Assembly (NCBI GenBank): GCA_964386935.1 | Contig: CAYLUX010000001.1 | Location: forward strand, 23,386-87,385 | DNA from: an uncultured Janibacter sp. | GTDB lineage: Bacteria; Actinomycetota; Actinomycetes; Actinomycetales; Dermatophilaceae | Direction: 5' to 3' | Length of the DNA: 64,000 nucleotides | Position numbers and translations under genes: made by a program | Shown: positions 14,115 to 40,234 of the stretch, one piece after another | Position numbering within the stretch: position 1 is the stretch's first letter | How the letters are laid out: each line of letters begins with the position of its first letter | Notes under the pieces: model-generated | What the model was told of the DNA's origin: nothing | Databases searched by the model: none | What the model saw: the letters and a program-made list of their open reading frames with translations, nothing else

Positions 14115-14780
14115 GTGCTCGTCGCGGCCGGGTCCGGCACCCGACTGGGCGCCGGTCGACCCAAGGCCTTCGTCGAGCTGGCGGGGGCCACACTGCTCTC
14201 CCGGGCCCTGGACGGGGTGCTCGCCGTGCCGGCCGTCGAGGAGGTCGTCCTCGTGGTGCCGGCGGACCACCTCGCGCAGGTCGACGAGCTCACCGGCACC
14301 CAGGGGGGCGTGCGGATCCGTGCCGTCGCCGGCGGGGCGGAGCGCACCGATTCCGTGGCCGCCGGTCTGGGGGCCCTCTCCGAGAACGTGACCCGGGTGC
14401 TCGTCCACGACGCCGCCCGGTGCCTGACGCCGGTGGCGGTCTTCGAGCGGGTGCTCGCGGCCCTCGAGGACGGGGCGAAGGGAGCGATCCCCGGTGTGCC
14501 CGTCGTGGACACCATCAAGGCGGTCGACGAGCGAGGAGTCATCACCGCCACCCCGGACCGGTCCCCGCTGCGGGCGGTGCAGACGCCACAGGGCTTCGAG
14601 CGGGCCGTGCTCGAGCGGGCGCACGCGGCCGGCGCGCAGGCGACCGACGACGCCGCTCTCGTCGAGGCCGAGGGCCACGACGTGTTCGTCGTCGAGGGCG
14701 ACCACCGCGCGCTGAAGATCACCACCGCCGCGGACCTGGTCCTCGCCGAGCACCTGCTGGCCACCGGCTCCCGGGGCTAG
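14115..14780 (+). CDS. ispD: 2-C-methyl-D-erythritol 4-phosphate cytidylyltransferase
   Basis: 'LVAAGSGTRLG', 'PKAF', 'VLVHDAARCL', 'VVDTIK'. GTG 14115 is the only in-frame start after the carD stop. Confidence 0.9.
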   Translation: MLVAAGSGTRLGAGRPKAFVELAGATLLSRALDGVLAVPAVEEVVLVVPADHLAQVDELTGTQGGVRIRAVAGGAERTDSVAAGLGALSENVTRVLVHDAARCLTPVAVFERVLAALEDGAKGAIPGVPVVDTIKAVDERGVITATPDRSPLRAVQTPQGFERAVLERAHAAGAQATDDAALVEAEGHDVFVVEGDHRALKITTAADLVLAEHLLATGSRG

Positions 14781-15841
14781 GCGCTCTCCCTTCGAGCGAG
14801 GTGGTCACGGACCGCCAGGGCCGCCGCGCGGCCGGCCCGGTTCCCCCCGATGGTGCTCGCCGAGGGGCCGTAGCCCACCAGCTGCACCCGCGGGTCGGCC
14901 ACGGTGGTCACGCTCGCCTGGACGTCGCGGCCGCCGGGCCGCAGGGCGATGCCGCCCTCGGGGCTGCGCAGGCCGAGCGGGGCCAGATGGCGGATCGCCG
15001 GGCGGAAGCCGGTGGCCCACAGGATCGCGTCCACCGGCTCGAAGGTGCCGTCGGCCCAGCGCGCCCCGTTCGCCTCGATCCGCTGGAACATCGGCAGCCG
15101 GCGGTCGTAGATGCCGGTCCGCCGTGCGGCCTCCTCCTGGGGGCGCAGCGCCAGGCCGGTCACGCTGACGACGCTGGCCGGGGGCAGGCCCTGCGCGACC
15201 CGTTCCTGGACCATGGCGATCGCCTCGCGCCCGGAGAAGCCGTCCGAGTTCCACACCGGTGGGCGGCGCGTCGCCCACAGCACGTCCGTGACGGGTGCGA
15301 GCTCGCCGAGGAACTGGACCGCCGAGGCGCCGCCCCCGACGACGACGACCCGCTTGCCCCGGAAGTGCTCCGCGCCCGGGTAGGCCACCGTGTGCCACTG
15401 CTCCCCGGCGAAGTCCCGCTGGCCGGGGTAGCTCGGCACGAAGGGGTTGGTCCAGGTGCCGGTGGCGTTGATGATTGTCCGGGCGGACCACTGCCCGCCC
15501 TCCGTCGACCGGATGCGCAGGACGCCGTCCACGTCGACCACCTGGCGCACGTGCACCGGACGCAGCACCGGCAGGTCGTGGGCCTGCTCGTAGTCGTCGA
15601 ACCACTCGGCGATGACCTCGTTCGCGGGGTCCTCCGAGCCGCCCGGTGCCTCGGCCGTGGGCAGGTCGGCCACGCCGTGCACGTCCTCCATCGACAGCGA
15701 GTCCCACCGGTGCTGCCAGGCCCCGCCGGGGCGCTCGTTGGCGTCGAGGACGACGTGCTCGATGCCCAGGCGGCGCAGGTGGAAGGAGCTGGAGAGCCCC
15801 GCCTGCCCGGCCCCGATCACCACGGAGTCGAGGATGGTCAT
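14777..15841 (-). CDS. class B flavoprotein monooxygenase (FMO-type) / NAD(P)-FAD oxidoreductase
   Basis: ATG 15841 gives '[16 protein letters not shown]' (GxGxxG). FMO motif '[11 protein letters not shown]' (FxGxxxHxxxY) and second dinucleotide site '[10 protein letters not shown]'. Confidence 0.8.
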
Positions 15842-15896
15842 GTCCGCTGCAACGCCCTTCGCCTCGGCCTGCATCCCACGGTGCCAGACTGCCGCC

Positions 15897-16385
15897 ATGG
15901 AGCAGCTGCCACGGACCGGGGTCGGGGTCGACGTCCATGCCTTCGCGGAGGCCGAGGCGGCACGGGAGCTGTGGGTCGGTGGGCTGCTGTGGCCGGGGGA
16001 GTCTGGCCTGGCCGGTCACTCCGACGCCGACGTCGCCTGCCACGCGGCCTGTGACGCGCTCTTCTCCGCGGCCGGGATCGGCGACCTGGGGCAGCACTTC
16101 GGGACCGGTCGGCCGGAGCTCGCCGGCGCCTCGGGCGCGACCCTGCTCGCCGAGGCGGCCCGGCTCGTGCGCGAGGCGGGCTTCGAGATCGGCAACGTCG
16201 CGGTGCAGGTCATCGGCAACCGCCCGAAGATCGGGACCCGTCGTGGCGAGGCGCAGAAGGTCATGTCGGACGCCTGCGGCGCCCCCGTCGCCGTCAGCGG
16301 GACGACGAGCGACGGTCTCGGGCTCACCGGTCGGGGCGAGGGGTGCGCCGCGATCGCGACCGCCCTCGTGGTGGCCCGGGTCTGA
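15897..16385 (+). CDS. ispF: 2-C-methyl-D-erythritol 2,4-cyclodiphosphate synthase
   Basis: ATG 15897. Contains 'GVGVDVHAF', '[16 protein letters not shown]', 'IGNRPKIG'. Confidence 0.9.
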
Positions 16386-16404: not shown

Positions 16405-17808
16405 CTACTCGGCCCGGTCCCTGGTGCGGGAGGCCAGCGCCGCCAGTGCCGAGGGAAAGATCTCCGCGGGAGGGGTGACGAGCCCCGCGCCCACCTGACC
16501 GACCCCCGCGACCCGCCCCGCCATGCCGGTGTTGATCTGCGGCAGGATGCCGGTGCGGCAGACCTTCGAGACGTCGATGCCGGTGGGGGCGCCGAGGAAG
16601 TCGAGGACCGGGATCGCCCAGCGATTGTTCTCGGCCAGCGTGATCTCGCCCATCCGACGAGTGGTGGCCAGGGCGTCCGGGACCGAGCCGCCGACGAATC
16701 GGACGATGGCCGGCGCGGTGGCCATCGAGAAGCCACCGATCCCCGTGGTCTCCGTGATCGCCGAGTCGCCGATGTCGGGATTGGCGTCCTCCGGACCGTA
16801 GTCGCCGAGGAAGAGACCGTCGGCGACCTGGGCCGGCCCCGTGAACCACTCGTCGCCGGTACCGGCGACCTGGATGCCGAACTCGGTGCCGTTGCGTGCC
16901 ATCGCCACGACCATGGTCGAGCCGTCGATGCCGCGGGCGGCGTCCATCTGGAGCTTGCACGCCGGCATGGCCACGTTGAGGAAGAAGTGGTCGTTCCCGC
17001 CGATGAAGGCGAAGACGTCCGCGACGTCGCCCGGGTCCGCACTGCTTCGGACGAGGGCGGGGGCCAGGTCGCGGAGCAGCATGAGGGTGCCCGCGCGGTT
17101 GCGGTTGTGGGCCTCGTCGCCCATCTGCAGCATCTGACCCAGGATCGCCGTCGCGTCGATGGGCCCGGTCGCCCGGACGGCCTCGGCGAGGACGGGGCCG
17201 AGGGTGTCGGCCATCCAGCGCAGTCGGGTGAGCACCTCCGAGGAGTAGGCCCCGTAGCGCAGGACCTTCCCGAGGCCCTCGTTGAGGGAGCAGTAGGTGC
17301 GCCGCCCGTCCTCGGGGTCCTCGAGCACCCACATCCACATGGAGGGGGAGACGACCCCGGCCATCGGACCGACCGAGCGACGGTGGTGGCAGGGCTCGAA
17401 GCTGAGGCTCCCGTCGGCGAAGAGGGCGGCGGCATCCTCCGGGTCCTCCACGAGCCCCTCGAAGGCGGCGGCACCCATCAGGGCGCCCTGCATCGGGCCC
17501 GATGCCTTGTCCCAGGTCAGCGGCGGCCCGGCGTGCAGGAACTGCCCGCGCTCCAGGCCCAGCACCTCGCGGGCAGGGGCCACGTCGACGACCATCGCCT
17601 GGACGCCGAGGACCGCCTCGACCGCACGCCGGTTCGCCTCGGCGCGAAGGGGGTCGGTCGCGACCGTGGTGAGGTCGGCCTCGGTCCCCGTCATCGGGGG
17701 GCGCCAGTCGACCCGGCTCACGGGGACGGCCTGGTCGGCCAGGGCGTCGGCGAAGATGCTGGCACCGGCCGACACCACTCCGGCCGTGGGGTTGCTGTTC
17801 GTCGTCAT
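16405..17808 (-). CDS. DUF1116 protein, YlbE/AllG-like subunit of an FdrA-type carbamoyltransferase
   Basis: 'LHAGPP', 'FEPCHHRRSVGPMAGV', 'CSLNEGLGKVLRYGAY' and 'GDSAITETTGIGGF' match my recollection of E. coli YlbE along the whole length. Confidence 0.85.
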   Translation of the reverse strand: MTTNSNPTAGVVSAGASIFADALADQAVPVSRVDWRPPMTGTEADLTTVATDPLRAEANRRAVEAVLGVQAMVVDVAPAREVLGLERGQFLHAGPPLTWDKASGPMQGALMGAAAFEGLVEDPEDAAALFADGSLSFEPCHHRRSVGPMAGVVSPSMWMWVLEDPEDGRRTYCSLNEGLGKVLRYGAYSSEVLTRLRWMADTLGPVLAEAVRATGPIDATAILGQMLQMGDEAHNRNRAGTLMLLRDLAPALVRSSADPGDVADVFAFIGGNDHFFLNVAMPACKLQMDAARGIDGSTMVVAMARNGTEFGIQVAGTGDEWFTGPAQVADGLFLGDYGPEDANPDIGDSAITETTGIGGFSMATAPAIVRFVGGSVPDALATTRRMGEITLAENNRWAIPVLDFLGAPTGIDVSKVCRTGILPQINTGMAGRVAGVGQVGAGLVTPPAEIFPSALAALASRTRDRAE

Positions 17809-19307
17809 GCTGCGGCTCCAATCAGGGAGAGCGCCCGGTCGACTGCCTGGGCATTGGACAGGTAGACCTCGGCTCCGGCCTCGGCCAGCGCCCTCGCCTG
17901 CTCGTCGAGCACCTGCGGGTCCTCGGCGGTGCCGATGCAGCTCACGAGGACGGTGAGATCCCGGCCCTCGGCACGGGCTGCCGCGATGGCGTCGCGGATC
18001 GCGGGGGCCGTGCTGGCGGCGGGGTCGGCGTCGGCACCGTGGCCGAGCACGACGTCCATGAGCACGACCGCCGCGTCCGGGTCCGCGCCGGTGGCGGCGA
18101 GGTGTTCGAGTCGGATCGTGGGGTCGATCATCGGGTGGGCCCGCCCGGCGGTCATCGAGTCGTCACCGAAGTCGATCATCACCGTGCCGTCGGCCGTGAG
18201 CGTCGGGCCGAGCGTGTACCGGGAGTCCAACGGGATGTTGCTGTACACCGGGCCGACGCGGTCCGTGGCCATGATCATGGCCTCGTCGCACAGCGTCCCG
18301 CCCGCGAAGAGGCCCCGCAGCCGCCCGGCGGTCGCCGTCGTGCCGGCAGCACCCCACGTGGGCCAGGTGGGCACCGGACGGTCGAGGGCGGTCAGGACGG
18401 TGGCAGCCGCCTCGGTGAGGTCGGGCCGTCCCGGTCCGAGGAGTGCGAAGTGGACCGGTGTGTCCAGCGTGTCCGCGAACCGGCGCAACTCGGCCTCGAC
18501 CTGCTCCGCCGGCGGCTTGGAGACCACGACGATCAGCTCGGTCCCCGGGTCGGCGTCGAGCCGGCGCATCGCCTGCATGGTCGCCAGACCACCGACCTCG
18601 GGGCCCAGGTCGCGACCGCCGACACCGAGCGCGGCGCTCATGCCGACGCCGGCGTGGTCGAGCAGGCACATCAGCTGCTGGCAACCCGTGCCGGAGGCCG
18701 CGACCAGGCCGACAGGCCCGGGACGCACCGCATTGGCGAAGCCGAGGCCCACTCCGTCCACCATCGCGGTTCCGCAGTCCGGACCCATGACGAGCAGGTC
18801 ACGGGCGGTGGCGATCCGTTTCAGTGCGACCTCCTGGTCGAGGGGCACGTTGTCGCTGAAGATCATCACGTCGTGGCCGGCGTCGAGGGCATCCATCGCC
18901 TCGACGACGGCACTCGCCCCGGGGACCGAGACGAGGGCCAGCGCCGAGTCCGAGCGCCGCAGGGCACTCGTGACGGTGCGTGCCGGCTCCTCCGCGCTGC
19001 CGGAGGACTCCGATCGCCTCGTCACGGCGGCCAGAGCCGCGTCGACAGCCGCCAGCGCCTCCTCCAGGGAGGACCGGTCCTCGAGCCGGATGGCCACGAC
19101 CATGTCGTTGGGGGTGGTCTCGGGCAGCTCGAAGCCCATCGAGGCGATGACGTCGAGGTTCAACGGCGTCGCCATCGCGACCTGTGCTGCTCGGACGCCC
19201 CGGACACCGGCCACGTCCTTGCTGACCTGCAGGAGTGCGACGGAGTCCGCGTAGGCGCCGGGGCGCCGTTCCACGTGGACGTGGCCGGCGTCGGTGGTGG
19301 AGGTCAT
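17805..19307 (-). CDS. fdrA: FdrA-like protein (succinyl-CoA-ligase alpha fold)
   Basis: ATG 19307 (the track ORF is extended to 19601 by R-rich junk). Contains 'LVSVPGASAVVEAMDALDAGHDVMIFSDNVP', 'LVMGPDCGTA', 'VGLVAASGTG'. It overlaps both neighbours by 4 nt. Confidence 0.85.
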   Translation of the reverse strand: MTSTTDAGHVHVERRPGAYADSVALLQVSKDVAGVRGVRAAQVAMATPLNLDVIASMGFELPETTPNDMVVAIRLEDRSSLEEALAAVDAALAAVTRRSESSGSAEEPARTVTSALRRSDSALALVSVPGASAVVEAMDALDAGHDVMIFSDNVPLDQEVALKRIATARDLLVMGPDCGTAMVDGVGLGFANAVRPGPVGLVAASGTGCQQLMCLLDHAGVGMSAALGVGGRDLGPEVGGLATMQAMRRLDADPGTELIVVVSKPPAEQVEAELRRFADTLDTPVHFALLGPGRPDLTEAAATVLTALDRPVPTWPTWGAAGTTATAGRLRGLFAGGTLCDEAMIMATDRVGPVYSNIPLDSRYTLGPTLTADGTVMIDFGDDSMTAGRAHPMIDPTIRLEHLAATGADPDAAVVLMDVVLGHGADADPAASTAPAIRDAIAAARAEGRDLTVLVSCIGTAEDPQVLDEQARALAEAGAEVYLSNAQAVDRALSLIGAAA

Positions 19308-20119
19308 GGGCAGGTGCTCCTTGATCTGAGGTGGTCCAGGGCGAGCGAGAGTCCCAGCACCAGACCGTGGCCGGACGTGTGACCGATGTGGGTCAGGTCG
19401 GCCACCGCGGCGGGGACCTCGTCGGGCCGGGCGGTGAGGGCGTCCAGCAGGTGTGCGAACTGGGGCACGGTCTCCCCGTGCAGTGCTCGACGCAGCAGCG
19501 TCGCCGAGAGGGAGGTGGTGCGTGTCCCGGCGGCGGCGAGCACCCTCCGGCCGAAGGGGGCCGCGCACGGGTGTCGTGCGGCGACGACGGTGGCGAGCCA
19601 ACCGCTCAGGACGTCGTCACCGAGCGGCGTGAGTCCGCTGCCGAGGCCGAGCAGGGCATCGACCGCGCGCACGTCCGCGTCCGCGAGGTCCTGCAGTGCC
19701 GCGGTGGGCAGCTCGGTCCGGATCTCGCTGCCCGCCGCCGGAGCCGACTCGAGGCGGAAGAGCATCCGGGGGGCCTCCTCGGGGTCGATCACCGTCGCGA
19801 CGCGACTGCTGATGCGTCCCACGCGGACCCGTGCCCCGGTGAAGTGGAGCGCTCCGCCGTCGATCGTGACGGTGCTGCCGGGGGCAGGAGGGCGTCCGTC
19901 GAGGGCGAGCCGGCCGGTGTCGGTCAGGGTCGTGTGCAGCCCGCACGGCACCAGGACCGCTCGTCGCGACAGCACGGCGACGACCTCCTTGCCGAGGTCG
20001 AGGTAGACCGCGTCCGGCCCGGAGTGGAGCACGGGCACCTGCGTGGGCCCCTCGGCGAGGAGCTCCCGGATCCACCGGGGACCGGCGGCGGAGACGTCGG
20101 TGCGGACCGCCGTGGTCAC
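19304..20119 (-). CDS. DUF2877 protein, YlbF/AllH-like
   Basis: GTG start, 271 aa. Contains 'LLGLGSGLTPLGDDVLSGWL' and 'IGHTSGHG'. First gene of a ylbF-fdrA-ylbE-type operon. Confidence 0.75.
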   Translation of the reverse strand: MTTAVRTDVSAAGPRWIRELLAEGPTQVPVLHSGPDAVYLDLGKEVVAVLSRRAVLVPCGLHTTLTDTGRLALDGRPPAPGSTVTIDGGALHFTGARVRVGRISSRVATVIDPEEAPRMLFRLESAPAAGSEIRTELPTAALQDLADADVRAVDALLGLGSGLTPLGDDVLSGWLATVVAARHPCAAPFGRRVLAAAGTRTTSLSATLLRRALHGETVPQFAHLLDALTARPDEVPAAVADLTHIGHTSGHGLVLGLSLALDHLRSRSTCP

Positions 20120-20218
20120 GACATCGTTCCCGTGGTCATATGTGGACCGTAGCGGCTGCTGTTAGCCTTGTTTAAGGCAAGAAATGACAATCATTCCCCG
20201 CAGAATTGACAGACTTTC
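20120..20218. promoter_or_regulatory. divergent control region between the DUF2877-fdrA-DUF1116 operon and pucR
   Basis: 99-bp stretch, clearly AT-richer than its surroundings. Palindrome GCCTT-GTTT-AAGGC (20165-20178) and a TGATT-N8-TTGCC element on the minus strand (20193-20176). Confidence 0.5.
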
Positions 20219-21874
20219 ATGAACCATGGGTACCGGGTCCCCCTTCGTGACGTCCTGGAGGTCGATGCCCTCGCGGACACGTCGGTGCTGGCGGGCCGTT
20301 CCGGTCTGGACCGGGTCGTGACGCGGCTGAACGTCATGGAGGTGCCCGACATCGTCGACTGGGTGGGCCCGCACGCCCTTCTGGTCACGGCCGGGTTCCC
20401 GCTCGTCGGGCTCGACGAGGAACGGTTCATCGACCTGATCCGGGGCCTCGACGAGCGAGAGGTCACGGCGCTGGGGATCAAGGTCGGCCGATATCTCGAC
20501 GAGATCCCCCCGAGCGTCCTCGAGGTCGCGGACGAGCTCGGGTTCCCCCTGCTGGCGCTCTCGGCGGATCTCGCCTTCGAGGACCTCCTCGAGGAGGTCC
20601 ACGTGCGTCTCACGGAGGTCCAGCAGGGAGTCCTGGAGCGCACGGATGCCCTGCACGCGGCGCTGGAGGGCCTGGTCCTCGAGGGGGCCGGTCTCGAGGA
20701 GATCGCTACCCGGATCGCCGAGGTGCTGGGGATCGGTGTCCTCGTGACGACGGTGGACGGACGTGAGCTGGCGGGGGCCCTGGCCGATGACATGCGCGAG
20801 ATCCTCGCGGGGGAGGACCTGTCCGACCCCACCGGTCGGATCCGGGTGGAGCGACTGCGGGTGCGACCGATGAGGGTCGGGGGCGGGCAGGTGCTGGTCC
20901 AGCCGGTGGTCGCCGCGAACAGCGACCTGGCGCGTCTCGTCGCCTTCGACCCGCACCGGGTGATCCCCAAGGACGACGTGTACGCCCTGCAGCGGGCGTC
21001 GGCGGTGGCCGCCCTCCTCATCTCCCAGCAGCAGGCCGTCAGCGCCGTGGAGTCGAAGTACCGGGGTGACTTCCTCCGGGACGTCCTCAGCGACCGGGCC
21101 GGCGACGAGGGCCGGGTGAGGGACTACGCGGCCGGGCTGGGGTGGAGCATCGATCTGCCGGTGATGGTGGTGACGGCGCGGCTCGACCCACCGGACAAGG
21201 GCTCGTCACCGGAGGGCAACCCGAGGGAGTGGCGCGAGCGCTTCTTCCAGGCGTGGAAGAAGGTCGTGGCCTCCCGCGGCCCCGAGCACCCCACGGCCGA
21301 CTTCTTCGACGAGGTCGTCAGCATCCTCTCCGCGCCGGAGCACCTGCGCGACCAGCCCAAGGCGGCGACGGAGCACCTCCAGGGGCAGGTCGCCGACATC
21401 GTCAGCGAGGTGGCGGGGGACCGGGGCGGGAGCCGGCGGCCCTTCTCCGTCGGTACCAGTCGGCTGGTGCGAGTCTGGGACGGGTTGCCCGCCGCCTACC
21501 GGCAGGCGCGGCGGGCCAACGAGGTCGGCTACCGGTTCACGGGAGGCAGCGGCACCTCGCACTTCGACGACCTGGGCATCCACCGCCTCATCGGGCTGAT
21601 CCCCGACCGGGGGGAGATGGAGGCCTTCGCCGAGGACGTCCTGGGCGAGCTGGCCGGTGAGGGGCCCGAGGTGGAGGGGCTGCGCGACACCCTGCAGGTG
21701 CTTCTCGACGCCAATCTCAACGTGGCGGAGGCCTCCCGGATCCAGTACGTCCACTACAACACGATGCGTTACCGGATCACGAAGCTCGAGCAGCTGCTCG
21801 GGTCCTTCACGACGGATCCCGCCCTGCGTCTGAACCTCGCGGTGGCGCTCCAGGTGCGCAGGATCCAGCTCTGA
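20219..21874 (+). CDS. PucR-family transcriptional regulator
   Basis: 551 aa. N-terminal PucR-type domain ('LRDVLEVDALADTSVLAGRSGLDRVVTRLNVMEVPD') and C-terminal HTH ('AEASRIQYVHYNTMRYRITKLEQLLG'). Confidence 0.85.
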   Translation: MNHGYRVPLRDVLEVDALADTSVLAGRSGLDRVVTRLNVMEVPDIVDWVGPHALLVTAGFPLVGLDEERFIDLIRGLDEREVTALGIKVGRYLDEIPPSVLEVADELGFPLLALSADLAFEDLLEEVHVRLTEVQQGVLERTDALHAALEGLVLEGAGLEEIATRIAEVLGIGVLVTTVDGRELAGALADDMREILAGEDLSDPTGRIRVERLRVRPMRVGGGQVLVQPVVAANSDLARLVAFDPHRVIPKDDVYALQRASAVAALLISQQQAVSAVESKYRGDFLRDVLSDRAGDEGRVRDYAAGLGWSIDLPVMVVTARLDPPDKGSSPEGNPREWRERFFQAWKKVVASRGPEHPTADFFDEVVSILSAPEHLRDQPKAATEHLQGQVADIVSEVAGDRGGSRRPFSVGTSRLVRVWDGLPAAYRQARRANEVGYRFTGGSGTSHFDDLGIHRLIGLIPDRGEMEAFAEDVLGELAGEGPEVEGLRDTLQVLLDANLNVAEASRIQYVHYNTMRYRITKLEQLLGSFTTDPALRLNLAVALQVRRIQL

Positions 21875-21946: not shown

Positions 21947-22002
21947 CTGGCAGCACTTGCCAGTGAGGCTGGTGTGACGTGAGACATAGGCTCGTGTCTC
22001 AC
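21947..22002 (+). promoter_or_regulatory. two inverted repeats upstream of the nucleobase permease
   Basis: CTGGCA-GCACT-TGCCAG (21947-21963) and GTGAGACA-N8-TGTCTCAC (21979-22002), just upstream of the AGGAG RBS. They may be operators or leader hairpins. Confidence 0.4.
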
Positions 22003-23412: not shown

Positions 23413-24296
23413 AACCCGCTCCCTTCCGCTACGAACGTCCGACGAACCTGGCCGGGGCCCTGGCCGTCCGGGCCTCGGAGCCCGAGGCGAAGGTCCTCGC
23501 AGGTGGGCAGAGCCTGATCCCCCTGATGTCGATGCGGCTCAGCACCGTCCCGGTGCTCATCGACATCAACGGGCTCGAAGAGCTCTCCCGCATCACGGTG
23601 GACCAGTCCGGGGTCCGGTTCGGCGCCATCGTGCGGCACAGCGAGCTGCTGGCGCACGAGGAGGCGAGGAAGGTCCAGCCCCTCCTCGCGGCCGCCCTCG
23701 AGCACGTCGCCCACGCGACCATCCGCAACCGGGGGACGAGCGTCGGCTCGATCGCGCATGCCGACGCCTCCGGGGAGATGCCGATGATCCTCTGCCTCAC
23801 CGGCGGCAGCCTGACCGTCGCGTCGACGCGGGGCCGGCGGGAGATCCCGGCCCAAGACCTGTTCGTCGGGGCCATGGAGACCAGCCTCGAGCCGGACGAG
23901 ATCGCGATCGAGGCTTTCGCGCCGGCGCTCGCGGCACGCAGCGGGATCGCCTACGACGAGGTCGCCCGTCGACACGGTGACTACGCCCTCTGCGGTGTGG
24001 GCGCCGTGGTCACCCACGACGAGGAGGGCCGGATCGAGCACGCCCGGGCGGGGTTCGTGTCGGTCTCGGAGGTTCCCGAGGTCGTCGACCTCACCGAGTG
24101 CTTCCCGCGGGGAGAGCTGAGCGAAGGGAGCCTGGCGGATGCCGGCGACCACGCCCTGAGCCGGCTCGACCCGGAGTCCGACATCCACGCCACGGCCGAC
24201 TACCGGGCGCAGCTCGCGCGCACGCTCACCGTCAGGGTGCTGCGCGCCGCCGACGAGGACGCCCGCGCCCGGACGATCCGGAAGGAGAGGGTCTGA
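23409..24296 (+). CDS. molybdenum hydroxylase FAD-binding medium subunit (CoxM/CutM type)
   Basis: GTGA overlap with the permease stop. Contains 'VLAGGQSLIPLMSMRL' and 'IRNRGTSVGSIAHADA'. Confidence 0.85.
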   Translation: MKPAPFRYERPTNLAGALAVRASEPEAKVLAGGQSLIPLMSMRLSTVPVLIDINGLEELSRITVDQSGVRFGAIVRHSELLAHEEARKVQPLLAAALEHVAHATIRNRGTSVGSIAHADASGEMPMILCLTGGSLTVASTRGRREIPAQDLFVGAMETSLEPDEIAIEAFAPALAARSGIAYDEVARRHGDYALCGVGAVVTHDEEGRIEHARAGFVSVSEVPEVVDLTECFPRGELSEGSLADAGDHALSRLDPESDIHATADYRAQLARTLTVRVLRAADEDARARTIRKERV

Positions 24297-24298
24297 CC

Positions 24299-24805
24299 AT
24301 GGAGGATCCCGCTGCAGAGGAGACCGTGTCGATCCAGTTGCGGGTCAACGGCATCACCCACACCATCGAGGCGCCGCCACGACGACTGCTGAGCGACGCC
24401 CTCCGCCACGACCTCGGCCTCACCGGCACGCACGTGGGGTGCGAGCACGGGGTCTGCGGGGCCTGCACCATCCTCGTCGACGGTTCTCCCATGCGCTCCT
24501 GCCTGATGTTCGCCGTCAGTGCCGCGCACCACGAGCTGACCACGGTGGAGGGGCTGGCGTGCAGGGACGGGCGGCTGAGCCCGACGCAGCAGGCCTTCAA
24601 GGAGTGCCACGGGCTGCAGTGCGGCTTCTGCACGCCCGGGTTCCTCACGACCATCAGCGCCGGGATCAGGGACAACCCGGACCCGGACCGCCAGGAGGCG
24701 CAGGACATGATCGCCGGCAACCTCTGCCGGTGTACCGGGTACCAGAACATCGTCGCATCGGTCCTGCGGGCGGCTGAGATCCAGCGGGAGGAGGACAGGC
24801 GATGA
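24299..24805 (+). CDS. molybdenum hydroxylase [2Fe-2S] small subunit (CoxS/CutS type)
   Basis: ATG 24299. Cluster motifs 'GCEHGVCGACTILVDG' and 'QCGFCTPGF ... CRCTGY'. Confidence 0.9.
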   Translation: MEDPAAEETVSIQLRVNGITHTIEAPPRRLLSDALRHDLGLTGTHVGCEHGVCGACTILVDGSPMRSCLMFAVSAAHHELTTVEGLACRDGRLSPTQQAFKECHGLQCGFCTPGFLTTISAGIRDNPDPDRQEAQDMIAGNLCRCTGYQNIVASVLRAAEIQREEDRR

Positions 24806-27225
24806 CCACGAGGATGATGGGTGAGCCGGTCGCCCGGGTCGAGGACGATCGCTTCGTCACGGGTCAGGGCCGCTACACCGACGACGTCGTGCCGGGCGCC
24901 CTCGAGGCGGCGGTGCTGCGCAGCCCGCACGCGCACGCGCGCATCGTCGACATCGAGGTCGAGGCCGTCCTGGAGATCCAGGGCGTGCACGCCGTCTACA
25001 CCTACGAGGACCTCACGGGTCCGATGGCCGAGCCGCTGCCGCTGCTCATCCCACACCCCGCCCTGACCGAGGGGCGCACCCAGTACGCGCTGGCGAAGGA
25101 CGAGGTCAACTACGTCGGCGAGGCGGTGGCCTTCGTCGTCGCCGACAACCGCTACATCGCCGAGGACGCACTGGACTGCATCGAGGTGGAGTACGAGCTC
25201 CTCGAGCCGGTGGTGGGGATCCCCGCGGCCAGGGAGGCGAGCACCCTCGTCCACGACGACGTCCCGGGCAACAGGGCGGCGATGTTGCAGCAGTCCTTCG
25301 GCGACGCGGACGCCGCGATCGAGGCGGCGCCCCACCGGCTGGAGCTCGACCTGAGCATCGAGCGCAGCGCGTCCACCCCTCTGGAGGGGCGCGGGACGGT
25401 CGCGCGCTGGGATGCCGACCTGAACCGGATGACGGTGTGGACCTCGACGCAGACGTCCACGGGGGTGCGTGCCGCGGTCGCGGCCAAGCTCGGCCTCGGC
25501 CTCGGTCAGGTCGACGTGGTCACGCCGGACGTCGGGGGAGGTTTCGGCGTCAAGATCATGCACCCGTGGCCCGAGGAGCTCCTCGTCCCCCTGGCGGCCG
25601 CGGCGCTGGGCCGCCCGGTGAAGTTCACCGAGGACCGACGTGAGCACTTCATCTCGGCCGCGCACGAACGCGGCCAGGAGCACCACATCGAGGTCGGCTT
25701 CGACGACGACGGGCGGATGCAGGGTCTGTCGGTGCACTTCTGGCACGACAACGGCGCCTACACCCCGTACGGGCTGATCGTCCCCATCATCACCTCGACG
25801 CAGCTGCTCGGCCCGTACAAGCCACCGAACTACTCGGTGACCTTCGAGAGCCTCTACACCAACACCGTGATCGTCACCCCCTACCGGGGAGCCGGCCGGC
25901 CCCAGGGCGTCTACGCGATGGAGCGCACGATGGACGCGATCGCCGCCCACCTCGGCCTGGACCGCACGGCGGTCCGCGAGGCGAACTTCATCCAGCCCGA
26001 CGAGTTCCCCTACGCCCAGGGCGACCTGATCTTCCAGGACGGGAGACCCCTGGTCTACGACTCCGGCGACTACCCGGGGTTGATGACCAAGGCCAAGGAC
26101 CTCATCCGCTGGTCGGACTTCGAGTCCTACCGGGAGGAGGCGCGGGCCGCCGGGCGCAGGGTCGGTATCGGCATCGCCTGCTACGTCGAGGGCACCGGGG
26201 TGGGACCGTACGAAGGGGGCCACGTCCAGATCGAGACCAGCGGCAAGGTCAAGGTCTCCACCGGGCTCACCACGCAGGGGCAGGGACACCAGACCGCCTT
26301 CGCCCAGATCGTCGCCGACGAGCTGGGGGTCCCCTTCGAGGACGTCGAGGTCGTCACGGGCGACACCAGGCGCTCCCCGTACTCCGTCGGCACCTTCGCC
26401 TCCCGCGCCGCGGTGATGAGCGGGTCCGCCATCGCCCTCGCGGCACGCAACGTGCGGGAGAAGGCGCTTCGCCTCGCATCGGACGCGCTCGAGGCCGATG
26501 TGGAGGACCTCGAGATCGACGACGGCATCGTCCACGTCAAGGGCGCCCCGCAGAGCCAGATCGCGCTCGGGACGCTGTCCGTGCTCTCGAACCCGCTTCG
26601 TTACGCCTTCGACGAGGCCTCCCGCGCGGCAACGCAGTTCGTCGTGGGGGACGCGACCAAGCCACCCGTCGCCGACGACGACGAGCCCGGGCTGGAGGGC
26701 AAGGACTACTACTCGCCGATGGGCTCGACATTCGCCAGCGGGATCCACGCCGTGGTCGTCGAGACCGACCCGGACACGGCGGAGATCAGCATCCTGGAGT
26801 ACGCCGTGGTCCACGACTGCGGGACCCTGATCAACCCCCGGATCGTCGAGGGCCAGATCCATGGCGGGGTCGCCCAGGGTGTCGGGGGAGCGCTCTACGA
26901 GCGGATGGCCTACGACGAGCACGGGCAGCTGCAGAACGCCTCCTTCATGGACTTCCTCATGCCCTACGTCACGGAAGTCCCCGACGGGATCTCGATCGAC
27001 CACCAGGAGACGCCCTCCACGATGAACCCGTTGGGGCTCAAGGGCGCCGGGGAGGCCGGGGTGATCCCGGTGTCGGCCGCGCTCGCCTCCGCCATCGAGG
27101 ACGCCGAGGGCTTCCCGATCACCGCCATGCCGATATCGCCCTCCGAGCTGTATGCACTCCGGGACACCCACCGGAGCGCACGCGACACCGGGCGCAGTCA
27201 CGACGTCGAAAGGACCTCCAAGTGA
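24802..27225 (+). CDS. molybdopterin-binding large subunit (CoxL/CutL type, form-II-like)
   Basis: ATGA overlap. Contains 'RVEDDRFVTGQGRYTDD'. The active-site loop is 'TPYRGAGRPQG', not the CO-dehydrogenase 'AYRCSFR'. Also 'GLKGAGEAG', the catalytic Glu region. Confidence 0.9.
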   Translation: MTTRMMGEPVARVEDDRFVTGQGRYTDDVVPGALEAAVLRSPHAHARIVDIEVEAVLEIQGVHAVYTYEDLTGPMAEPLPLLIPHPALTEGRTQYALAKDEVNYVGEAVAFVVADNRYIAEDALDCIEVEYELLEPVVGIPAAREASTLVHDDVPGNRAAMLQQSFGDADAAIEAAPHRLELDLSIERSASTPLEGRGTVARWDADLNRMTVWTSTQTSTGVRAAVAAKLGLGLGQVDVVTPDVGGGFGVKIMHPWPEELLVPLAAAALGRPVKFTEDRREHFISAAHERGQEHHIEVGFDDDGRMQGLSVHFWHDNGAYTPYGLIVPIITSTQLLGPYKPPNYSVTFESLYTNTVIVTPYRGAGRPQGVYAMERTMDAIAAHLGLDRTAVREANFIQPDEFPYAQGDLIFQDGRPLVYDSGDYPGLMTKAKDLIRWSDFESYREEARAAGRRVGIGIACYVEGTGVGPYEGGHVQIETSGKVKVSTGLTTQGQGHQTAFAQIVADELGVPFEDVEVVTGDTRRSPYSVGTFASRAAVMSGSAIALAARNVREKALRLASDALEADVEDLEIDDGIVHVKGAPQSQIALGTLSVLSNPLRYAFDEASRAATQFVVGDATKPPVADDDEPGLEGKDYYSPMGSTFASGIHAVVVETDPDTAEISILEYAVVHDCGTLINPRIVEGQIHGGVAQGVGGALYERMAYDEHGQLQNASFMDFLMPYVTEVPDGISIDHQETPSTMNPLGLKGAGEAGVIPVSAALASAIEDAEGFPITAMPISPSELYALRDTHRSARDTGRSHDVERTSK

Positions 27226-27860
27226 AGCTCTCCGGATCCACCCACCTCGCCGCACCTCCCGAGGACGTCTGGGATGCGCTGCTGAACCCCGATGTCCTCA
27301 CCAGGACCATCCCCGGATGCGAACGGCTGGAGCCGACCGGGGAGAACACCTACGACCTGACCGTGACGGCCGGCGTGGCCTCCATCAAGGGCACCTACAA
27401 GGGGGCCGTGGAGCTCGAGGACCTGGTACCGCACCAGTCGCTGACGATGCGCGTCGACGGGGCCGGCTCGGCCGGCACCATCGGCGTCACCGTGCGGGTG
27501 CGCTTCGAGCCGGGCGAAGGGGGGACCACCGACCTGAGCTATGACGCGGACGCGGTCGTCGGCGGGATGATCGGCGGTGTCGGCCAACGGATGCTGACCT
27601 CGGTGAGCAAGCGGATGGCCGGCCAGTTCTTCGGGGCCGTCAACGACGTGCTGACCGGCGTGGCCGTGCCTGCAGCCGCACCGGGGGTGCCGGCGCAGGC
27701 GGCAGCAGCCGGTGCCGGAGTGCCCGCTCCCGTGGCCGGTGCCGGCTTCGCCCCACAGGCCGGTTCCTCGACCCAGGACCTCGTCAAGGGCGCCCTCGTC
27801 GGTGGGGCCCTCGTCCTGGCGGGTGTGCTCGCGGGGGCACTCGCCGGACGTCGCCGCTGA
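27222..27860 (+). CDS. CoxG-like SRPBCC protein with C-terminal membrane anchor
   Basis: GTGA overlap. Starts 'MKLSGSTHLAAPPEDVWDALLNPDVL'. An A/P/G-rich linker is followed by the hydrophobic tail 'LVGGALVLAGVLAGALAGRRR'. Confidence 0.8.
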   Translation: MKLSGSTHLAAPPEDVWDALLNPDVLTRTIPGCERLEPTGENTYDLTVTAGVASIKGTYKGAVELEDLVPHQSLTMRVDGAGSAGTIGVTVRVRFEPGEGGTTDLSYDADAVVGGMIGGVGQRMLTSVSKRMAGQFFGAVNDVLTGVAVPAAAPGVPAQAAAAGAGVPAPVAGAGFAPQAGSSTQDLVKGALVGGALVLAGVLAGALAGRRR

Positions 27861-29288: not shown

Positions 29289-29305
29289 TTCAGCAGATTC
29301 TGACA
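29286..29305 (+). promoter_or_regulatory. shared island motif, copy A (upstream of hyuA)
   Basis: TGATTCAGCAGATTCTGACA. The first 11 nt are identical to copy B. Confidence 0.45.
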
Positions 29306-29396
29306 ACCCGACGGTGTCGTCACGTCAGGTACTGCCGTGGATCCGACGGAGATACCGCGATGGGGTGGCATCGGAACCACAACCAGGAGGCGCAGG

Positions 29397-31487
29397 GTGC
29401 AACGAGGCAGCCACATCAGGATCGGGATCGACACGGGCGGCACCTTCACCGACGTCGTCGCATTCGACGAGCTCACCGGGCGCACGGTCACGACGAAGAC
29501 CCCCTCCACGCCCGAGGACCCGGCGGAGGGCTTCCTCGCCGGTACCGCGAAGGTCCTGGACGAGCTCGGCCTCGGTGCCGACACCGTCAGCGCCATCAGC
29601 CACGGCACCACGGTCGCGACCAACCAGCTCCTCGAGGGCAAGATCGAGCGGATGGGCTTCATCGCCAATGCCGGGTACGAGGCCGTGCTGGAGATCGCAC
29701 GACAGTCCGTGCCGGACGGTTACGGGAACTCCTACTTCTGGGTCAAGCCGGAGCGCATCGTGCCCCGCCACCTCGTCAGGGGAGTGCCGGGACGGCTGGA
29801 CTTCACCGGCGAGGAGATCGAGGCCTTCGACGAGCAGCGGGCACGCGAGGTCGCGCGCTGGTTCCGCGAGCACGAGGTGCACACCCTGGGCGTCTGCCTC
29901 CTGCACTCCTACGCGAACCCCGCGCACGAGCAGCGGATGCGCGAGATCCTGCGTGAGGAGCACCCCGACGCCATCGTCTCGGTCTCCTCCGAGGTGCTGC
30001 GGGAGTACCGGGAGTACGAGCGCTCGATGACCACCCTCGTCGACGCCGCGGTCAAGCCGCGGCTCTCCCGCTACATCGACAACATCACGACCCGGCTGGA
30101 CGGACTCACCACCGGGGGAGGGCTGCCCTTCTACGTCATGAAGTCCAACGGGGGCGTGCTCAGTGCGGAGGAGGTGGTCCACCAGCCGATCACGACGGTG
30201 CTCTCGGGGCCCGCGGCGGGTGCCCTGGGGGCGGCCATGATCGGTGACCTGGCGGGCTTCGACCGGGTCCTCACCTGTGACGGCGGCGGGACCTCGACCG
30301 ACGTCTCGGTCGTCATCGACGGGAGCCCCACCCTGACCACGGAGGGCTCCGTCGGGGTCTACCCGAGCAAGATCCCCATGATCGACGTGGTCACCGTGGG
30401 TGCCGGAGGCGGCTCGATCGCCGGCCTGTCACCCGAGGGCACCCTCAAGGTCGGGCCCGCCTCGGCCGGTGCGGACCCCGGGCCCGTCTGCTACGGCAAC
30501 GGGGGCACGGAGGTGACCATCACGGACGCCCACGTCGTCCTCGGGCGCGTCCCCGCACACCTGCTCGGCGGCGAGATCGGACTGGACGTCGACGGTGCCC
30601 GGGCCGCGTTGGAGCAGCTGGCGGGCTCCCTCGACATGACCGTCGAGGAGTGCGCGGTCGGGATCCTCGAGATCTCCGCCTGGAACCAGGCGAACGCCCT
30701 TCGTCAGGTCACGGTCAAGCGGGGTCTCGACGTCCGCGACTTCGCGCTCACCACGTTCGGTGGCTCCGGTTCGCTCCTGCTGTGCCGGCTCATGGACATC
30801 CTCGACATCGCGACCGTGCTCGTGCCGTTGAACCCCGGCAACCTGTCCGCCTTCGGCCTGCTGACGGTGGACGTCAAGAACGACTACGTGCAGACCTCGG
30901 TGACGCTGCACAGCCAGCTGCAGGCCGATCACCTGACGGCGGTCTACGGACAGCTCGAGGAGCAGGCGGTCGACGCCCTCACCCGTGAGGGGTTCGACTC
31001 GGAGGTCCACCAGCTGGTCCGTACCGCGGACCTGCGTTACTTCGGTCAGGCCTTCGAGGTCCGGGTCCCCGTGGCGGAGGGGCCGATCACCCGGGAGGTG
31101 ATCGACGCGGTGGCCAAGCGCTTCCACGACGAGCACCGCACGCTCTACGGCTACGACTTCGAGGGCAACCCGGACCAGCAGGTCGAGTGGGTCAACCTCC
31201 GGGTGTCCGGCATCGGGCCGATCCGACGTCCGGAGCTGACGCCGGAACCGGTGCAGCAGGACCCACCGACCGTCCCGACCGGTCGGCGCAGCGTCTGCTT
31301 CGACCCGGAGCGTGGCCGGGTCGACACCCCCGTCTACTGGCGCGAGGACCTGGCGCCAGGGGCCCGGCTCACCGGCCCGGCCGTCATCGAGGAGTTCGGG
31401 TCCACCGTGCCCATCCACCCCGGATTCGTCGTCCGTGTCGACGAGTACCGCAACATCATCGTCACTCGCGAAGGAGCCGAGGCATGA
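29397..31487 (+). CDS. hyuA: hydantoinase/oxoprolinase family, A (HyuA-like) subunit
   Basis: AGGAGG (29385-29390) lies 6 nt before GTG 29397. Contains 'IRIGIDTGGTFTDVVAFD' and 'GGGTSTDVS'. Confidence 0.85.
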   Translation: MQRGSHIRIGIDTGGTFTDVVAFDELTGRTVTTKTPSTPEDPAEGFLAGTAKVLDELGLGADTVSAISHGTTVATNQLLEGKIERMGFIANAGYEAVLEIARQSVPDGYGNSYFWVKPERIVPRHLVRGVPGRLDFTGEEIEAFDEQRAREVARWFREHEVHTLGVCLLHSYANPAHEQRMREILREEHPDAIVSVSSEVLREYREYERSMTTLVDAAVKPRLSRYIDNITTRLDGLTTGGGLPFYVMKSNGGVLSAEEVVHQPITTVLSGPAAGALGAAMIGDLAGFDRVLTCDGGGTSTDVSVVIDGSPTLTTEGSVGVYPSKIPMIDVVTVGAGGGSIAGLSPEGTLKVGPASAGADPGPVCYGNGGTEVTITDAHVVLGRVPAHLLGGEIGLDVDGARAALEQLAGSLDMTVEECAVGILEISAWNQANALRQVTVKRGLDVRDFALTTFGGSGSLLLCRLMDILDIATVLVPLNPGNLSAFGLLTVDVKNDYVQTSVTLHSQLQADHLTAVYGQLEEQAVDALTREGFDSEVHQLVRTADLRYFGQAFEVRVPVAEGPITREVIDAVAKRFHDEHRTLYGYDFEGNPDQQVEWVNLRVSGIGPIRRPELTPEPVQQDPPTVPTGRRSVCFDPERGRVDTPVYWREDLAPGARLTGPAVIEEFGSTVPIHPGFVVRVDEYRNIIVTREGAEA

Positions 31488-34224: not shown

Positions 34225-34242
34225 CGTGCCCAGAACGTTTTC

Positions 34243-34262: not shown

Positions 34263-34299
34263 GTGTGGGCCGGTGGTGTCGGCTCGTAACGTGCATCAC

Positions 34300-39044: not shown

Positions 39045-39174
39045 GGCCCGAGACTATTGAGCGGGCCGCCCCGGGCGACATGTCAAGAGATGCCCAAAGG
39101 ATCCCGGTCACCCGTCAACCCACGACAGCGCCGGCGGTTCATCGGGGGCGCGGCGGTGCCGCCTGCCCTCGGTC

Positions 39175-39873: not shown

Positions 39874-39916
39874 GGTGGGGAAGGGTAGCCCTCGCGCCCG
39901 CGGGGGTCCCCGGTGA

Positions 39917-40234
39917 TCACCGGATCGAGGAGTGCGTCCTGGGAGAGGCGATGCGGGCCAGCCGTTGCAGCTCGGAGACGTGCCCGCAGAGGGCTTCCCG
40001 CCCGCGAGGGGTCAGCGTCACCCGGGTGAGCCGCCGCCCGGCGGTGACCTCCCGCGCGACGGTGACGTAGTCCTCGGCCTCCAGTGCGCTCAGGTGCTTG
40101 CTGAGCGCCGAGTCGGACAGGCCGACCTCCTCCCGGATCCGGGCGAAGGGAAGCCCCCGCGTCGGCACGAGCAGCGCGCAGATCTGGAGTCGGTGCGGCT
40201 GGTGCACGACCGGGTCGAAGAGCGGACGTGGCAT
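39917..40234 (-). CDS. small winged-helix (ArsR/MarR-like) transcriptional regulator
   Basis: 105 aa. '[12 protein letters not shown] ... [23 protein letters not shown]'. Divergent from the mscR-like gene. Confidence 0.75.

Follow-up and report, generated by a model that had tools for sequence, protein, structure and literature searches.

The DNA analysed here, referred to below as the window, is a stretch of 64,000 nucleotides (positions 23,386 to 87,385 of contig CAYLUX010000001.1, GenBank assembly GCA_964386935.1) from an uncultured Janibacter species, with an actinomycete-typical G+C content of ~72%. A 25-kb island within it (~14.8-39.1 kb) encodes AllH, AllF and AllG (together AllHFG), a PucR-family regulator, a nucleobase permease, a molybdenum (Mo)-hydroxylase, an amidase, HyuAB, a carbamate kinase (ArcC, gene arcC), a barbiturase (gene bar), a coenzyme A (CoA)-transferase (CoAT, gene coaT) and a carboxyltransferase (CT). 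Our subject is the allH-allF-allG operon and its relation, through carbamate kinase, to barbiturase and the oxidative pathway of pyrimidine breakdown, which has been known since the 1950s, is genetically poorly defined and is always drawn ending in urea and malonate.

Genes were picked with a filter on third-position G+C content (GC3) against spurious open reading frames (ORFs) and then named by Pfam and NCBIfam. All of the genes named in an earlier note on this DNA are present, with coordinates essentially unchanged, and the named genes are strong full-length family matches (GC3 0.89-0.94), not chance ORFs of GC-rich DNA. The features central to the argument are as follows (aa, amino acids).

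19304-20119, minus strand: allH (DUF2877), first gene of the operon, 271 aa; PF11392, 82.9 bits against a cut-off of 25
17805-19307, minus strand: allF (FdrA-like, succinyl-CoA-synthetase-alpha-like), 500 aa; PF00549 Ligase_CoA, 104.6 bits
16405-17808, minus strand: allG (DUF1116), 467 aa; PF06545, 323.9 bits; PDB 3clq, 381 bits
34300 (ATG)-35238, plus strand: arcC, catabolic carbamate kinase; PF00696; PRK12352, 283 bits against a cut-off of 266
35279-36391, plus strand: barbiturase, a Toblerone-fold ring-opening amidohydrolase; PF09663, 497 bits

The Pfam matches of AllH, AllF and AllG all exceed their gathering cut-offs, and AllF scores 407 bits on the NCBIfam FdrA model, slightly under the cut-off of 433. 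The longest ORF for allF (to 19601) is too long; judged from the translation, the ATG at 19307 is the likely start and, given that start, ATGA start/stop overlaps occur at both the allH-allF and the allF-allG junctions. The three genes are a translationally coupled minus-strand operon, and the same unit is found in L081-L083, L091 and L170 (L-numbers are labels of the related loci that we compared).

The earlier note had given the function of the Escherichia coli homologues and their neighbouring carbamate kinase correctly: FdrA, YlbE and YlbF (AllFGH) were shown in 2024 to be oxamic transcarbamylase (OXTCase), which catalyses the reaction oxalurate + Pi <-> oxamate + carbamoyl phosphate, does not need CoA and is co-transcribed with the carbamate kinase AllK (PMC11326118). 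The window shares with that system the three protein families, contiguous coupled genes and a catabolic carbamate kinase partner, as well as, we infer, an N-acylurea substrate and transfer of its carbamoyl group to phosphate. The partner, arcC, lies in the same island with a common operator motif and stands in the same co-directional string as allHFG in L091 and L170. There are also differences. AllF is only 37% identical to E. coli FdrA/AllF (full length), AllG 48% identical to YlbE/AllG and AllH 34% identical to YlbF over the C-terminal 119 aa only, and the window's proteins fall in a separate clade; the gene order is H-F-G rather than F-G-H; arcC belongs to another transcription unit, beside barbiturase, whereas allK is part of the allFGHK operon; and the context is barbiturase and Mo-hydroxylase, whereas E. 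coli has allB, allC, allD and allE upstream. The predicted substrate of the window's enzyme, ureidomalonate, is one carbon longer than oxalurate.

The allantoin setting of the E. coli enzyme is missing. No allantoinase, allantoate amidohydrolase, ureidoglycolate dehydrogenase/lyase or glyoxylate carboligase was found by Pfam in the 64-kb window, and tblastn with E. coli AllA, AllB, AllC, AllD, AllE, Gcl and GlxK gave no match in the window or in 167 related loci (2.3 Mb). Co-located allantoin genes, which the earlier note had named as grounds for reading the operon as ordinary oxalurate metabolism, are thus absent from both. The barbiturase-linked AllG and AllF proteins form a tight clade of their own (within-clade identity 74-80% for AllG and 64-71% for AllF), which is roughly equidistant from E. 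coli AllG/F, from E. coli YahG/F and from forms linked to cyanuric acid hydrolase (CAH), at ~45-50% (AllG) and 37-41% (AllF). The closest named AllG proteins are from Janibacter (87%); a look-up for sequences identical to the window's AllG gave no match.

The ring-opening enzyme matches PDB 5hwe, the crystallised Rhodococcus barbiturase, with 666 bits over residues 1-369 (~83% identity), whereas none of the matches to cyanuric acid hydrolases exceeds 333 bits. It also passes the NCBIfam AtzD equivalog (489 against a cut-off of 360), and automatic naming as a cyanuric acid hydrolase is possible. Judged from sequence, it is a barbiturase with near certainty, the sole assignment in the island of that standing. 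ArcC, besides its PRK12352 match, scores 327 bits on TIGR00746, under the cut-off of 358, and is 39% identical to E. coli AllK/YbcF.

Linkage of allHFG and carbamate kinase to barbiturase

We scored 80 species-level genome loci round barbiturase-clade genes, with 10-kb flanks, using the island proteins. The loci span Nocardioidaceae, Intrasporangiaceae, Pseudonocardia, Streptosporangiaceae, Jatrophihabitans, Cryptosporangium, Jiangellaceae, Geodermatophilaceae and others. In the window, the carbamate kinase gene immediately precedes the barbiturase gene, as had been noted (34300-35238, then 35279-36391), and the suggested check for co-occurrence bore this out more widely: in 72/80 loci arcC is the gene immediately before bar and has the same orientation, with a gap of <200 nucleotides (nt) in 71. 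The exceptions are six Rhodococcus loci, one unclassified metagenome-assembled genome (MAG; L060) and one locus cut by a contig end. L060, from an uncultured member of the Actinomycetota, is the only assessable barbiturase locus outside Rhodococcus without any island gene (arcC, amidase, CoAT and so on) within 10 kb on each side. AdnA/AdnB-like helicases, PurH, DeoD and DJ-1, all recurrent near barbiturase, were set aside as housekeeping neighbours outside the system.

To complement this survey, we also searched outwards from AllG, in genome loci and in metagenomes. L081, the AllG locus of Nocardioides sp. R1-1, connects to the barbiturase locus (L074) in the gene order of the window, and its allG is flanked by genes for pyrimidine-nucleoside phosphorylase, cytidine deaminase and a Bmp nucleoside ABC transporter. 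Nocardioides CPCC 206349 carries an allHFG-pucR-permease-Mo-hydroxylase-CoxG-amidase module ~30 kb from hyuAB-arcC-bar on one contig, and 18 kb separate allG from bar in Embleya. The first module of Saccharomonospora marina (L083) is as in the window on the allHFG-pucR-permease-Mo-hydroxylase side, together with a gene resembling flavin-containing monooxygenase (FMO). Tighter arrangements, which are the most informative, also occur: L004 is compact, with allF and allH next to pucR-arcC-bar; L133 holds both modules within 16 kb; and L091, a metagenome contig, has a single co-directional string, arcC-bar-coaT-allH-allF-allG-CT, in which AllH was confirmed by Pfam. The three-gene set had been described as divergent from the PucR gene, and Pfam confirms this arrangement in the window (PucR at 20219-21874); a divergent PucR gene is also present in L081-L083 and in 20/29 assessable metagenome loci of the window's AllG clade. 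Where such metagenome loci have longer upstream sequence, 13/17 have a permease or Mo-hydroxylase gene.

An operator-like motif, TTGKCA-N5-TGCC, is present in each of the island's promoter gaps. It has exactly two exact matches in the window, against 0.06 expected, and further copies with one mismatch, as follows.

20176-20190, minus strand: TTGTCATTTCTTGCC, exact match, in the divergent promoter gap between allH and pucR
34216-34230, plus strand: TTGTCATGACGTGCC, exact match, ~70 nt upstream of the arcC ATG
21947-21963, matching on both strands: palindromic copy CTGGCAGCACTTGCCAG, one mismatch, in the gap between pucR and the permease gene
29292-29306, minus strand: copy with one mismatch, in the gap between the amidase gene and hyuA
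39080-39094, plus strand: copy with one mismatch, 36 nt upstream of the carboxyltransferase start

Allowing one mismatch gave nine matches in all (3.3 expected), six of them in the island's five promoter gaps. A looser form of the motif lies no more than 250 nt upstream of arcC in 32 related loci and is also found upstream of coaT, hyuA and Rhodococcus bar, and of allH in L091 and S. marina; its overall enrichment is modest (~1.8-fold, 71 matches against 40 in shuffles), and its value lies in where the matches fall. These positions argue for one regulon that includes allHFG. PucR is the probable regulator of the island and probably controls all its transcription units through this putative operator. 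Two other candidate operator motifs were rejected: TAGCGTC, which is the -10-like box of a leaderless allH, and GTTGGCA alone, which is too near a generic -35 box. Both arcC (34287-34302 in the window) and allH (promoters of L081-L165) appear leaderless; in most loci a TANNNT box (TAACGT, TAGGTT or TAGCGT) precedes the start codon by 6-9 nt.

The loci that lack arcC give a complementary picture. Rhodococcus, in which the classical pathway to urea and malonate is established (PMC3758960), has the layout CoAT-CT-bar-amidase-PucR...permease-Mo-hydroxylase, and no arcC, AllHFG or HyuAB was found within 21 kb in its loci. The window resembles the classical R. erythropolis pathway in its barbiturase (~83% identical), in the kind of Mo-hydroxylase and in having NCS2 permease, PucR, CoAT and CT in common; it differs in having arcC before bar, AllHFG, HyuAB and, elsewhere in the cluster, an amidase only 40% identical to the one beside Rhodococcus bar. 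The Rhodococcus type is marked by a PRK07486-type amidase right after bar and by the lack of a carbamate kinase; the window, with arcC directly upstream of bar, is not of this type. On the NCBIfam model PRK07486 the Rhodococcus bar-adjacent amidase scores 726 bits, against 463.9 for that of the window. Between the barbiturase and Mo-hydroxylase genes, Rhodococcus loci L025 and L028 also encode an XdhC-like maturation factor, a second PucR paralogue and a second amidase-signature amidase (14442-15818), which is PRK07487-like and shares 33% identity with that of the window.

The coupling of AllHFG and carbamate kinase to barbiturase proposed in the earlier note is therefore supported by synteny, by the L091 string, by the common motif, by the complementarity with Rhodococcus and by a parallel pairing with cyanuric acid hydrolases, described below.

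Other genes of the island

The remaining features of the island are listed here; after PucR, the plus-strand order is NCS2 permease, Mo-hydroxylase with CoxG, amidase, hyuA, hyuB, NmrA-like, arcC, barbiturase and CoA-transferase.

14777-15898, minus strand: FMO/ArsO-like flavoprotein, neighbour of allG; Pfam Pyr_redox_3 and FMO-like; NCBIfam ArsO, 295 bits, below cut-off
20219-21874, plus strand: PucR-family regulator, divergent from allH; PF07905, PF17853, PF13556
22024-23412, plus strand: NCS2 (xanthine/uracil) permease; PF00860, 235 bits
23409-24296, plus strand: Mo-hydroxylase, FAD subunit (Pfam)
24293-24805, plus strand: Mo-hydroxylase, 2Fe-2S subunit (Pfam)
24802-27225, plus strand: Mo-hydroxylase, Mo subunit (Pfam)
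27222-27860, plus strand: CoxG/SRPBCC accessory protein of the Mo-hydroxylase; PF06240
27873-29288, plus strand: amidase-signature amidase; PF01425, 360.7 bits, full-length domain
29337-31487, plus strand: hyuA, ATP-dependent hydantoinase/oxoprolinase family (Pfam)
31484-33424, plus strand: hyuB, same family (Pfam)
33424-34224, plus strand: NmrA-like NAD(P)-binding protein; PF05368; a short-chain dehydrogenase/reductase (SDR) holds the same position in other genomes
36388-37593, plus strand: family III CoA-transferase; PF02515, 382 bits; 4-nt overlap with the bar stop codon
37611-39044, minus strand: fused AccD/AccA-type carboxyltransferase; PF01039 and PF03255; PDB AccD and AccA

The NCS2 permease probably takes up uracil or thymine. 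The large subunit of the Mo-hydroxylase has quinoline 2-oxidoreductase and CoxL, rather than xanthine dehydrogenase, as its nearest PDB relatives; it scores 1472 bits on the NCBIfam model CODH_aero_grp5, and the xanthine dehydrogenase models fall far under their cut-offs. With this group 5 match, the enzyme would be annotated automatically as an aerobic CO dehydrogenase. Because its linkage to barbiturase is conserved in both arcC-type and Rhodococcus-type clusters, we regard it as the candidate, and probable, uracil/thymine dehydrogenase that makes barbiturate. To our knowledge, neither uracil/thymine dehydrogenase nor ureidomalonase has an assigned gene sequence.

The nearest family model for the amidase is NCBIfam PRK07486, on which its score (463.9 bits) lies just under the cut-off of 465. 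Close relatives of the window's amidase (59-73% identity) occur in 14 loci, all with arcC, and 39-40% relatives in six loci, all Rhodococcus and without arcC. The amidase had been likened in the earlier note to malonamidase E2, a comparison that did not hold up: among its PDB matches (E <= 1e-30) there is no malonamidase, the best being GatA, NylA, AtzE and urethanases. The role of malonamidase that we propose for it is drawn from context.

HyuA and HyuB are caprolactamase-like in NCBIfam, under cut-off, and N-methylhydantoinase is the nearest PDB relative of HyuB. They occur in 38/80 (HyuA) and 44/80 (HyuB) barbiturase loci, and clusters of arcC type conserve hyuA, hyuB and the NmrA/SDR gene immediately before arcC-bar; those of Rhodococcus type have none of the three. 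We know of no published oxidative pyrimidine scheme in which HyuAB or an NmrA-like protein has a role. The FMO-like gene adjoins allG in S. marina (L083, 12071-13189) and L090 as well, and is found no more than 10 kb from barbiturase in nine Nocardioides-type loci. We weighed several options for HyuAB, NmrA and the FMO-like protein and favour none: a thymine/5-methylbarbiturate branch, ATP-dependent opening of uracil or hydantoin, or formation of oxalurate via dialurate, alloxan and parabanate.

The CoA-transferase gene is present in 49/80 loci, Rhodococcus included, and lies directly downstream of allG in L128, L130, L131 and L133. CT, found in 21/80 loci and in both cluster types, has a weak MdcD match, with no biotin carboxylase or biotin carboxyl carrier protein nearby. 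We propose that the first converts malonate to malonyl-CoA and that the second is a malonyl-CoA decarboxylase; together they appear to form a biotin-independent path on which malonate is turned into acetyl-CoA by way of malonyl-CoA.

Outside the island the window encodes housekeeping functions (CarD, IspD, CysS, PhoU, a two-component system, OtsA and others), and no urease or urea-carboxylase gene was found among the genes of the 64 kb by Pfam. Insertion of the island between ispD and ispF/cysS was considered and not confirmed. At 39175-40234 (minus strand), a class-I glutamine amidotransferase-like gene and a small winged-helix regulator border the island; the pair was not seen in related loci and is probably unrelated.

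A candidate phosphorolytic branch and its rivals

On this evidence the island probably specifies a variant form of oxidative pyrimidine breakdown, with phosphorolysis in place of the hydrolytic ureidomalonase step by which Rhodococcus forms urea. Uracil, and perhaps thymine too, would enter through the NCS2 permease and the CoxL/Qor-type Mo-hydroxylase would oxidise uracil to barbiturate, which barbiturase would open to ureidomalonate (3-oxo-3-ureidopropanoate), an N-acylurea. AllH-AllF-AllG would then pass the terminal carbamoyl group to phosphate (ureidomalonate + Pi -> malonamate + carbamoyl phosphate), and carbamate kinase would conserve it (carbamoyl phosphate + ADP -> ATP + NH3 + CO2). 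The amidase would cleave malonamate to malonate and NH3, and the CoA-transferase with the fused AccD/AccA CT would take malonate through malonyl-CoA to acetyl-CoA and CO2. All transcription units would be under the control of PucR, acting through the TTGKCA-N5-TGCC operator.

The arcC-type and Rhodococcus layouts thus likely differ in how the ureido group is removed, with a predicted nitrogen output of carbamoyl phosphate and NH3 in the window and of urea in the classical pathway. Since CoAT and CT are common to both layouts, malonate is their likely common end product. A net yield of ATP and a urea-free ending are plausible; conserved HyuAB, NmrA and FMO-like genes lie outside the scheme, and the net gain of ATP is therefore uncertain. 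The nearest biochemical precedents outside the AllFGH family are the arginine and agmatine deiminase modules, which likewise phosphorolyse a ureido group to carbamoyl phosphate and then make ATP by carbamate kinase, but do so with single-gene enzymes of the ornithine/putrescine transcarbamylase fold acting on N-alkylureas, whereas the unrelated AllFGH enzyme has three subunits and N-acylureas as its substrates (PMC11326118). The earlier note knew of no description of such a scheme, and full-text searches of open-access papers and bioRxiv likewise found no account of AllFGH or carbamate kinase acting with barbiturase.

Several observations weigh against this scheme. AllHFG is within 10 kb of barbiturase in only 1/80 barbiturase-centred loci, a count that is a lower bound for AllF, as 10-kb flanks cannot reach allHFG in the window-type arrangement, where it lies at a distance of 15 kb. 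HyuAB and CoAT, rather than AllHFG, are the most closely linked partners of arcC-bar, and allHFG stands alone amid unrelated genes in L158-L160. The operator motif is degenerate, with a diverged half-site, in Nocardioides allH promoters. The steps after barbiturase rest on context and family chemistry, and the E. coli enzyme was characterised with oxamate and oxalurate only. PRK07486 is the best model for the window's amidase and a strong one for the Rhodococcus bar-adjacent amidase, such that the former could itself be a ureidomalonase, and no amidase is present in the available sequence of some arcC-type clusters (L018, L036, L064, L091). HyuAB, finally, consumes ATP and has no place in the scheme, the energetic rationale of which may be incomplete.

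The main rival takes up two of these points. It holds that the amidase is a true ureidomalonase (ureidomalonate -> malonate + urea) and that AllHFG and ArcC process another N-acylurea of the same regulon, such as ring-opened 5-methylbarbiturate from thymine, or the product of HyuAB acting on a hydantoin or imide with the aid of the NmrA/SDR or FMO-like enzyme. The shared best match of the two amidases to PRK07486, the conservation of HyuAB and NmrA/SDR in arcC-type clusters only, with no role in the scheme set out above, and the closeness of HyuB to N-methylhydantoinase all speak for it. We nevertheless consider it unlikely: it is bar, not hyuAB, that arcC adjoins in 72/80 loci; L004, L133 and proteobacterial CAH operons join a ring opener, AllHFG and ArcC without HyuAB between; and the amidases form two groups, with just 40% identity between them, that segregate perfectly with the presence or absence of arcC.

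It is very unlikely, in our view, that AllHFG is an ordinary oxamate carbamoyltransferase acting on purine- or allantoin-derived oxalurate and merely sharing a PucR-type regulator and a neighbourhood with pyrimidine genes. Pfam labels the subunits oxamate carbamoyltransferase, one homologue (P0183) already carries that name in one source, and purine catabolism typically involves PucR-family regulators and NCS2 permeases. Against this stand the lack of any allantoinase, allantoate amidohydrolase, ureidoglycine aminohydrolase or ureidoglycolate dehydrogenase/lyase in the window or the 167 loci, a Mo-hydroxylase of CoxL/quinoline-oxidoreductase rather than xanthine dehydrogenase type, the co-directional arrangement of allHFG with arcC, bar and coaT in L091, the operator motif common to the allH and arcC units, and a clade apart from E. 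coli AllFG.

The position of coaT might instead suggest that AllHFG acts on ureidomalonyl-CoA, formed by the CoA-transferase, or on acetylurea arising by decarboxylation, with malonamoyl-CoA or acetamide as the product beside carbamoyl phosphate. In the window, coaT is translationally coupled to bar; it separates bar from allH in L091 and immediately follows allG in L128, L130, L131 and L133. AllF has a CoA-ligase-type fold, and some clusters show no amidase in the available sequence. CoAT and CT are, however, equally present in Rhodococcus, where the products are urea and malonate (PMC3758960) and where their simplest role is downstream of malonate, and E. coli OXTCase works without CoA (PMC11326118); we hold this reading to be highly improbable.

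Least probable of all is that HyuAB feeds carbamate kinase by using ATP to activate urea or a ureide to a phospho-intermediate, with carbamoyl phosphate as the final product and AllHFG unrelated or accessory: hyuAB-(nmrA)-arcC-bar is the commonest local gene order and the oxoprolinase/acetone carboxylase family works via phosphorylated amide intermediates, but we know of no hydantoinase A/B family member that releases carbamoyl phosphate, plasmid CAH-AllHFG-ArcC operons lack HyuAB, and carbamoyl-phosphate chemistry has been demonstrated for no family of the island other than AllFGH (PMC11326118).

Parallel sets beside cyanuric acid hydrolases and their meaning

The enzyme set that we assign to a phosphorolytic branch has a counterpart around cyanuric acid hydrolases. 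Plasmid pSR8 of Aminobacter sp. SR38 (L169, 11013-24825) and a Klebsiella quasipneumoniae plasmid (L086) carry a co-directional series that runs from a hypothetical gene through fdrA, DUF1116, trzD, arcC, an amidohydrolase gene and a Bmp ABC transporter to DUF2877; the pSR8-type TrzD is essentially identical (810 bits) to 5t13, the crystallised TrzD cyanuric acid hydrolase (PMC5366886). On K. aerogenes pMB5632_3 (L170, 5906-14835), an IS26-flanked series consists of a hypothetical gene (411 aa), CAH, NCS2, DUF2877, fdrA, DUF1116 and arcC, with atzF nearby. Genes of this type are also found on many Citrobacter, Enterobacter, Leclercia and Raoultella plasmids, and their CAH is Moorella-like (582 bits to 6bum). 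The hypothetical proteins of 411 and 454 aa that lead the CAH/TrzD operons have no Pfam match. The AllHFG-arcC enzyme set thus accompanies Toblerone-fold ring openers with two different specificities.

The chemistry of the two settings runs in parallel, the compounds forming NH/CH2 isostere pairs: cyanurate and barbiturate, carboxybiuret and ureidomalonate, allophanate and malonamate. In the cyanuric acid route (AtzD/TrzD, then AtzEGH or BiuH, then AtzF), a Toblerone-fold opener likewise yields an N-acylurea, carboxybiuret, and the amidase-signature enzyme AtzF acts on allophanate, the isostere of malonamate, which it reportedly accepts (PMC3944691). The published cyanuric acid routes are purely hydrolytic, in which they differ from the scheme proposed here, as does the window in its ring substrate, barbiturate. 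The TrzD gene cluster suggests a phosphorolytic, carbamoyl-phosphate-forming step in the catabolism of cyanurate and melamine; no report of a role for AllFGH and ArcC beside trzD was found in open-access papers or bioRxiv.

Remnants and further sets of the family were also seen. A truncated AllG (CP000475.1, 228180-228674), 60% identical to the C-terminal 165 aa of the window's protein, lies on pTC1, the atrazine-catabolic plasmid of Paenarthrobacter aurescens TC1, and is possibly a relic of an AllFGH-linked triazine module; an Agrobacterium leguminum plasmid (NZ_CP119975.1, 45984-46478) likewise carries a truncated AllG remnant. E. coli K-12 has a further AllFGH-type set, yahE-yahF-yahG-yahI-yahJ (L171, 4926-11508), encoding DUF2877, FdrA-like, DUF1116, carbamate-kinase-like and amidohydrolase proteins. 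It shares the H-F-G order of the window, followed by the carbamate kinase and amidohydrolase genes, and differs in sequence (~45% identity for G, 38% for F) and in having no barbiturase-family ring-opening amidohydrolase; its substrate is probably not oxalurate. On pAPEC-O2-ColV, from avian pathogenic E. coli, there is a DUF1116-arcC-cytosine permease unit (L168, 9001-13026), and on other plasmids with the ColV-type DUF1116-arcC set an annotated fdrA lies directly beside the DUF1116 gene. The published account that comes nearest to ours, a 2025 metagenomic note, described allFGHK beside biuret and triuret genes in nitrifiers, which its authors read as use of oxalurate (PMC12625717).

We tentatively raise a wider possibility, on which judgement may fall either way: that AllFGH-type enzymes are a general family of N-acylurea:phosphate carbamoyltransferases, repeatedly paired with Toblerone-fold ring openers and carbamate kinase, and that barbiturate and cyanurate catabolism both have unrecognised ATP-conserving branches. 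If so, the barbiturate and cyanurate (s-triazine, melamine) branches would bypass urea, biuret, urease and the AtzE/BiuH steps, and the native pathway of TrzD would be one such branch; the island would, in addition, contain candidates for the genes of uracil/thymine dehydrogenase and ureidomalonase. If the scheme proposed for the island is right, annotations assigned automatically in hundreds of genomes ('CO dehydrogenase', 'oxamate carbamoyltransferase', 'cyanuric acid amidohydrolase') would be open to reinterpretation, and the parallel TrzD enzyme set suggests an unrecognised route for cyanuric acid and melamine that matters for bioremediation. On that scheme, too, the recently identified AllFGH enzyme would gain a second physiological substrate, and most barbiturase-bearing actinomycetes (72/80 of the species sampled) would end the oxidative pyrimidine pathway via carbamoyl phosphate and ATP.

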